Source: Octopus vulgaris
Lineage: Eukaryota
Direction of reading: 5' to 3'
Assembly (NCBI GenBank): GCA_951406725.2
Contig: OX597836.1
Coordinates: 10,726,001-10,790,000 of the forward strand
Length of the DNA stretch: 64,000 nucleotides
The position numbers were made by a program, and so were the translations under genes. The stretch's first letter is position 1. Every line of letters starts with the position of its first letter. Shown one piece after another: positions 8,377 through 56,956 of this stretch. A model generated the notes under the pieces. It was not told the origin of the DNA. It saw nothing but the letters and a program-made list of their open reading frames with translations, and did no database searches.

Positions 8377-8609
8377 TATTTCTTTATTACCCACAAGGGG
8401 CTAAACACAGAGGGGACAAACAAGGACAGACATAGGTATTAAGTCGATTACATCGACCCCAGTGCGTAACTGGTACTTAATTTATCGACCCCGAAAGGAT
8501 GAAAGGCAAAGTCAACCTCGGCGGGATTTGAACTCAGAACGTAACGACAGACGAAATACCGCTAAGCATTTTGCCCGGCGTGCTAACGTTTCTGCCAGCT
8601 TGCCGCCTT
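8377..8609 (-). mobile_element. SINE family B monomer with 17-bp target-site duplication
   Basis: Head GGCGGCAAGCTGGCAGAAACGTTAGCACG, B box GAGTTCAAATCCC, 3' end AAAGAAATA. TSD TATTCACATGAGTATCC at 8360-8376 and 8610-8626. Confidence 0.92.
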
Positions 8610-21016: not shown

Positions 21017-21477
21017 ACCTCGGCGGAATTTGAACTCAACTTAACAGCAAACGAAATACCTATTTCTTTACTATCCACAAGGGGCTAAACACAGAGAGGA
21101 CAAACAAGGATAGACACACGGATTAAGTCGATTATATCGACCTCAGTACGTAACTGGTACTTAATTTATCGACCCAGAAAGGATAAAAGGCAAAAATCAA
21201 CCTCGGCGGAATTTGAACTCAGAACGTAGCGGCAGACGAAATACCTATTTCTTTACTACCCACAAGGGGCTAAATACAGAGAGGACAAACAAGGACAGAC
21301 AAACGGATTAAGTCGATTATATCGACCCCAGTGCGTAATTGGTACTTAATTTATCGACCCCGAAAGGATGAAAGGCAAAGTCGCACCTCGACAGAATTTG
21401 AACTCAGAACGTAACGGCAGACGAAAGACGGCCACGTATTTCGCCCGGCGTGCTAACGTTTCTGCCAGCTCGCCGCC
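21017..21477 (-). mobile_element. SINE B multimer (head + 2 units + partial)
   Basis: GAAATACC|TATTTC junctions at 21060/61 and 21245/46; period ~185 bp. Confidence 0.9.
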
Positions 21478-22191
21478 TTAATAAAAACTAACATTAACAA
21501 GATGGCGACGAATATGACGACGATGATAGAGACGACCACCACCACTAAAAATATAATAAGTAAATAGATTTACAGTCAGCATTGTTATAAGAAAACTGAA
21601 TCAATAATTTCTATCTTATCTTTTCTTTCCACTTTAAACCAAGATTCAATTTTGACTGCTGATGTGAAATATTCGATTTTTATATTTTATATATATTTAT
21701 TATTTTATACACACACATATATTATTTTTATAAATTCTCTTCTTTTATTTTCGTTCGTATTTTTCCTTTCTTTCTTTCTTTCTTTCTTTCTTTCTGTCTG
21801 TCTTTCTATCTTTTCTTTCATTCGTTCTTTCTTTCTTTCTATTCTCCTTCCTTCCTTTGTAGATATTTCAATATTAATAACTCGAACGATATGAAATGTT
21901 ATGAACTTCATAAACATTATTAATATATTTTGTACAACTTACAAATGATTTTATAAAGGTGGCGAATAACGAAAGGAAACAAAAACAAAAACAAAAAAAT
22001 GTGGAGAATAACAAAACAAATAAAAAAAAACAAAACAAAAAAAACAAAAAAAGAAGATACTCACCGCCAAAAAACAAAATAAAATACAAATAAAGAAAAT
22101 AGAAGTTAATGTTTAACACTTAATACCAAAACGATTCGCATGAAAAGTGTAAACTCCAATATTGTTTATATTATTTCTTCTCTGTAAAGAC

Positions 22192-26657: not shown

Positions 26658-27540
26658 ATGTATATATATGTATGTGGTGTTTACTATTTTGCAAGTTTCT
26701 TGTAAATAAGTGGCGCATTTCAGTAATTTTTGTCAGCCATTTTGTCGGAACGTCAGTAGAATTCGCTTATTTGTTTATACACTATATTTCCTTGCTTTTC
26801 TTGAAAAAGAGACAAATAAGTAGAAAATTAATCGACTCGGACAGAAGTATATTTCTGATCGATGCATCTAATTTGAAGACGCAACCAATATGACGTAACC
26901 CACAAGACCAAGGATTTGAAATTCATTCAAAATCACTTAGGAATAAGCGTTTGATTTGCTTTATAATCTTTTTATGTTTGTTGGCAGAATACTGAAATTG
27001 CGATCCATATCTTTGACATTTAGCTCTGAATAAGATGCTTATAGAAAAACGTTAAACTGGGTAGTATAACCTAGCGTACCTTATCTGACATCGACAATCC
27101 GGACTACGTTGTTACTTCTCATATTGGCCGGCAGATGGCGGTGATATGGCGGAAGTGTTAACACAACACATACGATAAAATGGTAACCGGCCTTATTCTT
27201 TCATCCTTTTACTGTTTCAGTCATTTATCTGCGGCCATACTGGAGCATCACCTTAAAGGGTTTTTCAAAGATACAAGGCTCTATTTTTGAGATATAGTTA
27301 ACACAGACAAATCCACATTTGGAACTCGGGAAAAGTTTTGCATATTTTTACTGTACAATAACTGTATATAATATATATCATAATGATATTTTTAAATATA
27401 AACAAATGACCGTAAAATGATGAGCTAACCTCAGGCTGAATCGAACCCACAAATCTTAGCTGTCATGGATCCTTGCGAATCTGATTGGCCAAACTCTCAC
27501 CCATCAATTTCAGTGCCTCCTTAGTAGATAGGATTATTAA

Positions 27541-28880
27541 AAGGCGAGTTGGCAGAATCGTTAGCACGCCGGGCGAAATGCTTAGCAGTATTTCGTCCGT
27601 CGCTACGTTCTGTGTTCAAATTCCGCCGAGGTCGACTATGCCTTTAATCCTTTCGGGGTCGATAAATTAAGTACCAGTTGCGTACTGGGGTCGATCTAAT
27701 CGACTGGCCCCCTTCCCCAAAATTTCGGGCCTTGTGCCTAGAGTAGAAAAGAATCGTTAGAGCATTATACACATTTGCTCCGGTGCTTTGCATTCCGGTT
27801 TCAGATCCCGTTAAAGTTGCTTTTTATTTTTTTGTTCTTTTTCAGGGTCGATAAGATAAAGTATTAATCAAATGCTGGTGTCAATGTAATCCTCTCAAAA
27901 ACGGTTGTCTCTAAGGTAGGTTATGAAACCCAGACAGCGAGCTGATAGATCCGTTAGTATACCGGGTAAATTTTGAGTTCAAATCCCGTTGAGGTCGCCT
28001 TTGCTTTACATCCTTTCAGGGTCGATGTAATCGACTAGACCTCTCCGTCACAAAATTTCTGGTTCTGTACCTAAAGCGGAAAGGATTATCAAGGAAGCGA
28101 GCTTGTGGCATCGTTAGCACGCCGGACAAAATGTTTAACGGTGATGAGTTCAAGTTCCTCCGAGGTCGACTTTGCCGTTTATCCTTTAGAGATCGATGAA
28201 ATAAAGTACCAACCAAATACTGGGACCAATATAATCGATCAACCCTCTTTCCCTTAAACTTTTGACCTTGCACCAAAGCAAACTGTATAGCGGCATTTCA
28301 ACTATCTTTAAGTTCCGAGTTCAAATCCCGCCGTGATCGACTTCGCCGTTCATCCTTTTGTGGGTCAATAAAATAAAGTACTGATCAATTACTGGGATAG
28401 ATATGATTGTCCCGCCTCCTTTCCCTCAAACTTCTGGTCTTGCACCAGGGCAAATACTTAGTGGTATCTCGTCTGCCGTTACGTTGTGAGTTCAAATTCC
28501 GCCGAGGTCGACTTTGCCTTTCATCCTTTCGGGGTCGATAAATTAAGTACAAGTTACGCACTGGGGTCGATGTAATCGACTGAATAACTATGTCTGTCCT
28601 TGTTTATCCCCTCTATGTTTACCCCCTCCCTATGTGGGTAATAAGGAAATAGGTATCTCGTCCGTCTTTACGTCTCGAGTTCAAATTCCGCCGAGGTCGA
28701 CTTTGCCGTTCGTCTTCTCTGGCTTAACGAAATAAAGTAACAATCAACTACTAAATGAAATAAAGTAACAATCAACTACTAAATGAAATAAAGTAACAAT
28801 CAACTACTGGGCTCGCTGAAATCAACTTGCCCGTCCCCTCAAAATCTGCTGGTTCCGTGCCAAAATTTGAAACCATTATT
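27541..28880 (+). mobile_element. Head-to-tail stack of ~7 diverged SINE B/B2 copies
   Basis: GTTCAAATTCCGCCGAGGTCGAC-like cores near 27615, 27800, 27978, 28148, 28319, 28490 and 28679, all in the same orientation. Confidence 0.85.
28729..28808 (+). repeat. 28-bp tandem repeat x~3
   Basis: GAAATAAAGTAACAATCAACTACTAAAT at 28729, 28757 and 28785. Confidence 0.9.
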
Positions 28881-30190: not shown

Positions 30191-30499
30191 AGTCAATTAA
30201 ATCGACCACAGTACGTAACTGGTACTTAATTTATCGACTGCAAAAGGATGAAAGGCAAAGTCAACCTCGGTGGAATTTGAACTTGGAACGTAGCACAAGA
30301 CAAAATACCCATTTTTTTACTACCCACAAGGGGATAAACACAAAGAGGACAAACAAGGACAGACAAACGGACCAAGTCGATTATATCGACTTCAGTGCAT
30401 AACTGGTACTTAATTTATCGACCCCGAAAGGATGAAAGGCAAAGTCGACCTCGGCGGAATTTGAAATCAGAACATAGCGACGGGCGAAATACCTATTTC
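30191..30499 (-). mobile_element. Headless SINE B multimer
   Basis: Junctions at ~30309/10 (degenerate) and 30493/94 (GAAATACC|TATTTC). Confidence 0.85.
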
Positions 30500-48209: not shown

Positions 48210-48434
48210 TATTTCTTTATTGCCCACAAGGGGCTAAACATAGAGGGGACAAACAAGAACAGACAAAGTCGATTACATTGACCCCAGTGCGAAACTGGTA
48301 CTCTATTTATCGACCCCGAAAGGATGAAAGGCAAAGTCGACCTCGGCGGAATTTGAACTTAGAACGCAACGGTAGACGAAATACGGCTACGCATTTAGCC
48401 CGGTGTGCTAACGTTTCTGCCAGCTCGCCGCCTT
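48210..48434 (-). mobile_element. SINE B monomer with 16-bp TSD
   Basis: TSD TATGAAA(T/A)TACATATA at 48194-48209 and 48435-48450; 3' end AAAGAAATA. Confidence 0.9.
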
Positions 48435-49347: not shown

Positions 49348-49429
49348 ATATATATACATACATACGCACCCACATATACATTTCTGTATGATGAACATTG
49401 TATTAGTATATGTATCAATGTATATCATA

Positions 49430-50283
49430 GGCGGCGAGCTGGCAGAATCGTTAGCGCGCCGGGCGAAATGCTTAGCGTTATTTCGTCTGCCGCTACGTTC
49501 TGAGTTCAAATTCCGCCGAGGTCGACTTTGCATTTCATCCTTTCGGGGTCGATTAAATAAGTACCAGTTACGCACAGGGGTCGATATAATCGACTTAATC
49601 CGTTTGTCTGGCCTTGTTTGTCCCCTCTGTGTTTAGCCCCTTGTGGGCAGTAAAGAAATAGGTATTTTGTCTGCTACTATGTTCTGAGTTCAAATTCCGC
49701 TGAGGTCGACTTTGCATTTCATCCTTTCGGGGTCGATTAAATAAGTACCAGTTACGCACAGGGGTCGATATAATCGACTTAATCCGTGTGTCTGGCCTTG
49801 TTTGTCCCCTCTGTGTTTAGCCCCTTGTGGGCAGTAAAGAAATAGGTATTTTGTCTGCTACTATGTTCTGAGTTCAAATTCCGCTGAGGTCGACTTTGCC
49901 TTTCATCCTTTCGGGGTCGATCAAATAAGTACCAGTTACGCACAGGGGTCGATATAATCGACTTAATCCGTTTGTCTGGCCTTGTTTGTCCCCTCTGTGT
50001 TTAGCCCCAGAAAAGAAATAGGTATTTTGTCTGCTACTATGTTCTGAGTTCAAATTCCGCTGAGGTCGACTTTCATCCTTTCGGGGTCGATAAATTAAGT
50101 ACCAGTTACGCACTGGGGTCGATGTAATCGACTTAATCCGTTTGTCTATCCTTGTTTGTCCCCTCTATATTTTAGCCCCTTGTGGGTAGTAAAGAAATAG
50201 GTATTTTGTCTGCTCTTGTGTTGTGAGTTCAAATTCCGCTGAGGTCGACTTTGCCTTTCATCCTTTCGGGGTCGATAAATTAA
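49430..50283 (+). mobile_element. SINE B multimer: 47-nt head + ~4.5 units of ~184 bp
   Basis: Units start at 49477, 49661, 49845, 50021 and 50200; junction AAGAAATA|GGTATTT. Confidence 0.93.
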
Positions 50284-50802
50284 TTATCTATCTATATATC
50301 GGGCTCTATCTGTTCGTCTGTCTACACATGGATAAACGCATATATACACACACACACCTTACAGAAAAGTGTACACGCGTACATATATTCCACTCCCTCC
50401 ACACACAAACACAATTCCAAACCAAAACACAATCATTATCGATTAATCAGTATCGATAAATAAATGCTTTATATACAGTTCCAAATATTGTAAACATAGC
50501 AGAACCTTTTATTGACAACAATAGAGCTATTTAAATATTTGCATCGTTATGTATTTAAATATATATACATTTAAAGGCTGAAATATAATGCAATTGTTAT
50601 CGTTAAATATCGTTAAATATCATAGACGCAGACATTGCCGTGTGGTTTAGAAGATGGCGCCGCAACAACAGATGCGTTCGGATGCTGTCCCACTGCGCAA
50701 AATCTTGGCATCTTTGGGAAGTTTTTTTCAATGAAGCCTCAGGTCACCCATTACGCCGCGAGTGAATTTGGTTGATGGTGACTGTACAGCTCAATGTATA
50801 TA

Positions 50803-51110: not shown

Positions 51111-51218
51111 CATATATAGTAGTTAGGCCGTCGCTCTCACGATTGCTAGATCGTGGGTTCGACTCTGAAAACGGGATTAATAATAAAAATTATTATTATT
51201 ATTATTAAGGCAGTGATA

Positions 51219-51660
51219 AGACGGCGAGCTGGCAGAATCGGTAGCACGCCGGGCAGATTGTTTAGTATTTCGTCCGTCTTCACGTTCTGGGTTCAAATTT
51301 CACTGAGGATGACTTTGACTTTCATCCTTTTGGGGTTGATAAATTAAGTACCAGTTGGCACCTTACCCCCAAATTTCAGGTCTTGTGCGTATTGTAGAAA
51401 GGATTGTTAAGGCGGCGAGTAAGCAGAATCGTTAGCACGCCAGGCGAAATGCTTAGCGATATTGCGTTCGTCTTTACGATCTGAGTTCATTATTACGCCG
51501 AGGTCGACTTTGCCTTTCAACATTTCGGACTCGATAAATTAAGTACCATCGAAACACTGGAGTCGACGTAATCGACAATTTCCTCCCCACCACAAAAAAA
51601 AACAAACAAACAAAAAGCAAAAACAAATCAGGCCTTGTGCCTTTAGTAGAAAGGGTTATT
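51219..51660 (+). mobile_element. Two tandem SINE B2 copies after (TTA)n
   Basis: Heads at ~51220 and 51411; tails CTTGTGC..TAGAAAGG(A/G)TT. Confidence 0.8.
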
Positions 51661-56729: not shown

Positions 56730-56734
<5 letters not shown>

Positions 56735-56954
56735 CTTTACTACCCACAAGGGCTAAACATAGAGAGGACAAACAAGGACAGACAAAGGATTAAGTCGATT
56801 ACATCGACCCCAGTGTAACTGGTACTAATTTATCGACCCTGAAAGGATGAAAGGCAAAGTCGACCTCGGCGGAATTTGAACTCGAACGTAACGACAGACG
56901 AAATACGGCTACACATTTCGCCCGGCGTGCTAACGTTTCGCCCAGCTCGCCGCC

Positions 56955-56956
<2 letters not shown>
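56730..56956 (-). mobile_element. SINE B monomer within (TA)n
   Basis: Full head to AAAGAAATA 3' end. Confidence 0.9.

Follow-up and report, generated by a model that had tools for sequence, protein, structure and literature searches.

Self-targeted insertion as a probable origin of dispersed tandem SINE arrays in Octopus vulgaris

Positions 49430-50283 of the window, by which we mean the whole 64,000-nucleotide stretch of Octopus vulgaris DNA that was analysed (contig OX597836.1, positions 10,726,001 to 10,790,000, forward strand), hold a SINE in tandem form. A single head is followed by four units and a partial fifth, and the units start at 49477, 49661, 49845, 50021, and 50200. Positions within the SINE are numbered on a consensus that includes two leading A's, so that position 50 is position 48 of the preliminary description. 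The features of the locus, including possible target-site duplications (TSDs), are as follows.

49413..49425, + strand: possible left TSD, matching 50285-50297 at 11 of 13 positions; low complexity, weak
49430..49476, + strand: tRNA-like SINE head, positions 3-49, with an A-box-like motif at 49440-49450
49477..49660, + strand: unit 1, positions 50-233, tail A, with a B-box-like motif at 49502-49514
49618..49660, + strand: last 43 nt of tail A, resembling an L1/Tx1-type LINE 3′ end
49661..49844, + strand: unit 2, its 5′ part like units 4 and 5 (C57T, C64T, C69T, C90T), like unit 1 from 105 on
49845..50020, + strand: unit 3, with a tail deletion; like units 4 and 5 through 105, like unit 1 from 127 on
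50021..50199, + strand: unit 4, a different A haplotype with a 6-bp deletion in the core
50200..50283, + strand: unit 5, partial (50-133), more diverged
50285..50297, + strand: possible right TSD, weak

The four joins claimed here by the preliminary description are real, with coordinates one nucleotide off, and all of them read GGTATTTTG, not GGTATTTC. Its units of about 184 bp are indeed joined at a fixed point, although unit 3 measures 176 bp owing to its tail deletion and unit 4 is shortened by its 6-bp deletion. The four C>T changes are common to units 2-4 and unit 5, while the switch to the unit-1 type falls before position 105 in unit 2 and between 105 and 127 in unit 3. Such differing switch points argue for local exchange and against identical copies of one circle. 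Local tandem expansion, which had been suggested from the private changes of units 2-4, is thus borne out by the mosaic inner units and the shared C>T changes. Unit 5 is likely the remnant of a host copy; internally ending last units have a mean divergence of 7.6%, compared with 3.6% for A units.

The SINE is a short, high-copy element of 231 bp with TSDs and box-like motifs in its head, and on these features it is a tRNA-derived SINE. The A-box-like and B-box-like motifs are presumed matches to the box consensus. Neither ARAGORN nor Rfam returned a match for the head from which a tRNA of origin could be named. The monomer RNA showed no significant predicted structure (z -1.4), and the consensus dimer contains no TTTT terminator. 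Four subfamilies, A, B, C, and D, share the head and core (1-168) and differ in their tails; their divergence at non-CpG sites is ~3.5% for the young subfamily A, 9% for B, 16% for D, and 17% for C. By description only, this organisation is like that of OR1 and OR2, which we take to be octopus tRNA-derived SINEs with a common head and core and different tails.

Three further arrays and three A monomers lie in the window, as had been described before.

8377..8609, - strand: A monomer with a 17-bp TSD (17/17) that starts GG like the junction
21017..21479, - strand: array head-A-A-partial (50-95), joins at 21061/21246
28436..28742, + strand: array: old head, a single A unit, then a partial unit; join at ~28652
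30191..30499, - strand: head-less array A(50-232)-partial(50-168), joins at ~30309/30493; another repeat upstream
48210..48434, - strand: A monomer with a CA tail and an 18-bp TSD (17/18)
56730..56956, - strand: A monomer in a (TA)n tract

A TSD was sought for the array at 21017..21479 and none was found. In the array at 28436..28742, the A unit and the partial unit both carry the rare T55C, which lies inside the 50-66 duplication zone. At 51218-51658 and 27538-28442 of the window, and at loci L014 and L063, B, C, and D copies follow one another head to tail, joined to the AT-rich end of the tail of a copy already present, which is a second kind of self-clustering.

Exact matches were counted genome-wide (2.8 Gb), with the reversed sequence as control. 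The fixed junction proved real at this scale, since the 20-mer joining the tail end to position 50 occurs in 34,752 exact copies and its reversed control in none. A second fixed junction, from the tail to position 17, has 2,665 exact copies. Among 69 junction-selected loci, read with no limit on the join position, 136 of the 149 joins after a complete tail lead to position 50 and 6 to position 17, and those leading to neither are accounted for by small indels. This selected sample is slightly redundant in that three loci (L136, L137, L138; C1, 22.15-22.30 Mb) have identical flanks and represent a segmental duplication. The unselected sample comprised 864 kb from six regions, one of them around the window, and contained 70 tail-complete A elements, namely 33 monomers and 37 arrays; the array at 49430..50283, which the parser had split in two, was counted as one. 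Arrays therefore occur on about half of the A elements in unselected DNA, which by extrapolation from the 864 kb amounts to roughly 10^5 loci. They end at an A tail in 17 of 37 cases, at a B, C, or D tail in 13, and internally in only 7, so the earlier statement that arrays end at variable internal points holds for the four arrays of the window and not for unselected DNA. Monomer ends are not independent of the junction: in the unselected sample, GG follows 44 of 106 T221-tailed ends and AG follows 23 of 46 CA-tailed ends.

Arrays follow the pattern head-A-(A)n-X, where X is any subfamily cut at 50 or 17; the parser chains only joins near these two positions, and its counts for them depend on this. 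Within the parsed set, the tails that precede position-50 or position-17 joins are A only. Where a non-A tail has a neighbouring unit (36 cases), that unit mostly starts with a new head, and 2 cases fall near positions 50/17. Most arrays have 2-3 units, the longest seen having 6, of which 4 are middle units (L052). The last unit diverges by 12.1% where it belongs to C (n=41), 11.7% for D (18), 8.0% for B (68), and 4.4% for A (87), compared with 3.6% for first and middle A units. Mantel tests across loci detected no linkage between first and second units (r -0.06 in 33 AB, 0.04 in 40 AA, and -0.04 in 25 AC arrays). No siblings were found among the 29 A+C loci, whose C units have pairwise identities of at most 85%.

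These observations bear on the case that the preliminary description had set against its own readings, in which all arrays descend from one dimeric master by DNA-level unequal crossover only. Such a descent is contradicted by the unique old second units, which belong to four subfamilies differing in age and show no linkage to the first units, and by the existence of two separate junctions. We consider it very improbable, even though the junction is tied to one tail haplotype and long arrays do contain unequal-exchange mosaics. The inner units of such arrays usually combine the 5′ part of the last unit with the 3′ part of the first, with differing exchange points. Adjacent units have at least two private changes in common in 12 of the 61 arrays with three units, in 8 of the 20 with four, and in 5 of the 6 that are longer, while the units of arrays L056 and L158 are unlike one another, as if by successive insertions.

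The same data weigh on one of the two readings proposed earlier, a 184-nt circular RNA produced by cleavage and ligation at an anticodon-like hairpin at the junction and copied by rolling reverse transcription. A unit of 184 nt lies within the 170-400 nt range of animal retrozymes (PMC7229834, in the portion available), the inner units of some long arrays are near-identical, and a short hairpin can form at the junction. This hairpin, however, folds no better than shuffled sequences (z 0.32) and carries a G>T change in the head of the present locus, and the unit contains no ribozyme motif, as noted from the start (no Rfam match, and no CTGANGA on either strand). A single 184-nt circle predicts identical A units, random ends with TSDs, and no units of sister families. 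The arrays instead begin with a full head, the inner units of a single array differ in their exchange points, the last units are often old and unique B, C, or D copies, and 30 of 37 arrays end at a tail, 13 of them at a sister-family tail. A TSD lies at the internal end in only 3 of 26 copies, one of which really ends at a full tail. The single circle is therefore rejected, and we regard any such circular origin as having very little chance of being correct.

A different origin is indicated by nested insertions of the form host(1-~65) + full A + host(50-end). A pattern for this form has 51 exact matches genome-wide, and 23 of the 28 distinct loci read fit it, with a target duplication of 14-17 bp at position 50. 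Changes private to the host are doubled in nested loci L097, L106, and L110, and likewise in L019. The TSDs of ordinary A insertions have a mode of 16 bp (n=39), which is the length of positions 50-65 and fits the target duplication of the nested form. Because nested insertions with a 14-17 bp TSD sit at this very base, position 50 is a site of insertion into DNA. New heads also follow a control motif that lies farther downstream in the host copy (42 matches over T-rich positions, matches counted only), so insertion elsewhere in hosts happens too.

The reading that we prefer, with a probability of roughly three in four, is that arrays form mainly when a Tx1-type LINE enzyme inserts a new A element into an existing SINE copy at position 50, and that homology then probably serves to resolve the doubled head. 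Insertion would proceed by target-primed reverse transcription by the Tx1 ORF2 protein. One head would then be lost, either through annealing of the cDNA to the host head during 5′ joining or through a later deletion between the two 65-bp repeats, and arrays of three or more units could arise by repeated insertion together with local unequal exchange. Of the 27 unselected arrays whose head is intact, one has kept two heads and the other 26 are without a second head. Two loci contain tandem arrays of the 64-65 bp head itself (L095, with 2 extra copies, and L118, with 8 copies), in which the doubled head of a nested insertion can be seen to expand as well as collapse. At four others (L143, L186, L315, L316), 12-13 nt 5′-truncated tail pieces have been inserted either at position 50 or into a junction already formed, and in some cases part of the host head is missing.

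One-headed arrays look like the nested event with its heads merged. The age of the head was examined in 22 of the 29 A+C loci, the 7 dropped being 3 with extra A units upstream, 1 unparsed, and 3 of nested form. Divergence of the first unit is 12.9, 6.8, 8.5, and 8.4% over positions 9-20, 22-33, 34-44, and 46-62, and 2.5-3.5% from 67 on, whereas 47 A monomers show about 2-4% throughout. Over 9-20 the first unit (12.9%) compares with 13.4% in C monomers and 4.4% in A monomers. The host-type T21 is present in the first unit of 15/22 A+C arrays and in 12/47 A monomers (p=0.003). The A+C head is thus old to about position 62 and young from 67, which is the end point of the TSD. This gradient is compatible with homologous joining at the time of insertion and also with a deletion between the two 65-bp repeats afterwards. 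In A+B heads, the B-type T21 is not enriched (12/46 vs 20/72 A monomers) and the excess divergence is small (5.2 vs 3.9%), while no head excess was found in A+D (n=12) or A+A arrays; in-situ origin is therefore best shown for A+C and is extrapolated to the others. Rare unit-2 variants within 50-66 were also present in unit 1 in only 3/28 cases. The age of the TSD as a sign of in-situ origin was suggestive in 7 loci and not in 22, and does not discriminate; TSD matches of 14-15/15 occur in 5/22 A+C arrays, similar to 14/62 A-ended copies. The C unit of A+C arrays is younger at its 5′ end (6-7% at 60-90 vs 16% at 141-205), which fits an RNA that ran past the junction and supplied part of the C unit.

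The old, host-type heads of A+C arrays also speak against the other reading proposed earlier, in which the reverse transcriptase (RT), while copying one SINE RNA, switches at position 50 or 17 to the 3′ end of an A RNA, or else copies RNAs that have already been ligated. Such jumps would account for the fixed junctions, the mixing of subfamilies, and the lack of linkage between units, and the R2 RT does jump between templates without homology (PMC12203849, in the portion available). They would, however, require RNA of old and unique C or D copies as the first template and predict a young head, and the nested insertions, with their TSD at this very position, are left unexplained; we judge this reading improbable. 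A jump at an RT stop was rejected.

A closer competitor to insertion into existing copies holds that nested insertions create a limited set of sources, with Pol III transcription starting at the inner A head and continuing across the host part downstream of it, and the resulting multimeric RNAs being retrotransposed whole. TSDs flank whole arrays, the heads of A+B arrays look A-type, and the missing TTTT terminator in the consensus dimer would permit such transcripts. Two copies have a clean TSD at the partial second unit, from which it appears that multimeric RNA is sometimes retrotransposed whole, and, on visual inspection, the members of one pair among the 74 A+C matches seem to have private changes in common. 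Against this stand the lack of linkage between first and second units, the absence of siblings in the 29 A+C loci, and the old, host-type heads of A+C arrays. Whole-multimer retrotransposition probably contributes, above all for A+B and A+A arrays, and is unlikely to be the main route.

In sequence, the tail of the SINE is similar to the 3′ ends of LINEs of the L1/Tx1 type. Over its last ~43 nt, tail A is ~80% like the 3′ end of a (TATC)n-inserting LINE, and 6 of 10 other LINE 3′ ends read also match the tail (best 25/27), some of them being closer to A than the (TATC)n LINE. The LINE domains are Exo_endo_phos (AP endonuclease), RVT_1 (RT), and zf-RVT, and the nearest solved structures are L1 endonucleases; the "Tx1" label for the candidate partner is our assumption, based on motifs and on microsatellite targeting. 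The 8,276 tails of the (TATC)n family were never found joined to GGTATTTCG, and no LINE could be confirmed whose end lies at the site used by the SINE, the 32 + 10 candidate loci read all being SINE copies. Counted as matches only, two LINE-like tails in that search were followed by TAGG, and one search returned 184 matches, many of them spaced 184 bp like SINE arrays.

The tail haplotype of the SINE tracks both the junction and the bases of the target. Position-17 joins have a C221 tail in 87 of the first 100, and a CA tail is joined to position 50 only 574 times. In unselected DNA, T221 is found in 47/54 position-50 joins and C221 in 7/7 position-17-type joins. In non-SINE targets, the TSD starts with GG in 13/21 T221 vs 0/7 C221 insertions, and with A in 1/21 T221 vs 5/7 C221, such that, before insertion, the target already began with the bases of that subfamily's own extension. 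This correspondence hints that a read-through RNA helps pick the site: in a Pol III read-through transcript, the first extra bases GGUA (AGAA for the position-17 subfamily) would pair with the nicked target and bias the choice. TG tails are younger than CA tails (3.3 vs 4.7%), and two partner enzymes active at different times could therefore give the same link between haplotype and junction. From the sequences compared here, the odds appear about even between read-through RNA pairing and endonuclease specificity alone. We tentatively go further, to a scenario that we hold to be possible although the balance is against it: an RNA-programmed, homology-directed retrotransposition, in which the 3′ read-through bases choose the priming nick, the other end of the cDNA anneals to the host head, units are added seamlessly at ~10^5 loci, and changed read-through bases move the target (17 vs 50).

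The LINEs themselves offer several separate observations. In the (TATC)n LINE (L072-L090 and the tail matches of the family), the dinucleotide directly following the tail is CA or CT in step with a SNP in the tail, which resembles the link between haplotype and junction in the SINE. A head-to-tail LINE stack is present at G000:C2:73046133-73068136, with five zf-RVT matches 5.4-5.7 kb apart, three of them in 1,140-aa frames. Loci L329-L338 contain LINE families with frames of 1,125-1,148 aa and a common poly(A)-less tail motif, after which come different, family-specific sequences. With the junction sequence L031:4920-4967 (run X11), the summed contig depth at the position-50 junction relative to the tail was lower in organism D than in A-C, a weak hint that the junction is rarer there, as depth does not equal copy number.

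On the preferred reading, insertion at position 50 with resolution of the doubled head, the SINE has turned its own family into a preferred target and has generated dispersed, mixed tandem arrays at large scale, offering a concrete route from interspersed to tandem repeats. One array then mixes old and young parts, so repeat ages and copy numbers obtained by annotation against a consensus are distorted here. Should RNA pairing and 5′ joining by homology be confirmed, the poorly understood formation of LINE 5′ junctions would become testable by statistics on many natural events, and the findings would also inform RNA-guided insertion tools.

Our literature search found no account of such arrays. 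The available portion of PMC13282606 gives octopus SINE and L1-Tx1 totals, and its supplements may name the family; octopus OR1 and OR2 are named as tRNA-derived CORE-SINEs in the available portion of PMC4824008. The sources compared in what follows were likewise available in part. The closest parallel is SINEU-3 with the Tx1-Mar LINEs of crocodilians, a SINE moved by Tx1-type machinery that prefers a Mariner site and forms tandems by sequential insertion (Kojima 2015, PMC4494074). The octopus SINE similarly has a Tx1-type tail, a site in another repeat, and tandems attributable to sequential insertion. Whereas SINEU-3 targets Mariner and leaves whole tandem copies that sandwich the TSD, the octopus SINE targets the head of its own family, and 26/27 unselected arrays are one-headed.

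In R2Ol, SART1Bm, and R1Bm, read-through or target-like 3′ RNA bases anneal to the nicked target, and for this group homology arms at both ends aid integration (PMC6530143, PMC7265360, PMC12203849). The subfamily-specific target bases of the octopus SINE would fit RNA-target pairing as shown for R2Ol and SART1Bm. Those elements are autonomous LINEs with rDNA or telomere targets, in which annealing has been assayed, while the octopus SINE is non-autonomous and its annealing is deduced from sequence.

The SINE-derived satellites (sSats) of squamates are also tandem, their units being shorter than the SINE and bordered by leading and trailing monomers, and have been proposed to originate by unequal recombination and insertion into the same locus; their arrays run to tens or hundreds of units, probably in subtelomeric positions (Vassetzky et al. 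2023, PMC10702118). Octopus arrays differ from them in having 2-6 units at very many dispersed loci, a junction at an insertion site, and mixed subfamilies, and the array at 49430..50283 has 3 middle units, compared with the at least four uniform middle monomers of an sSat. Metazoan non-LTR retrozymes (Cervera and de la Pena 2020, PMC7229834) likewise consist of short, non-coding tandem units of similar length, but the octopus arrays have no hammerhead; their head is tRNA-like, their tail is that of a LINE, and their units are mixed.
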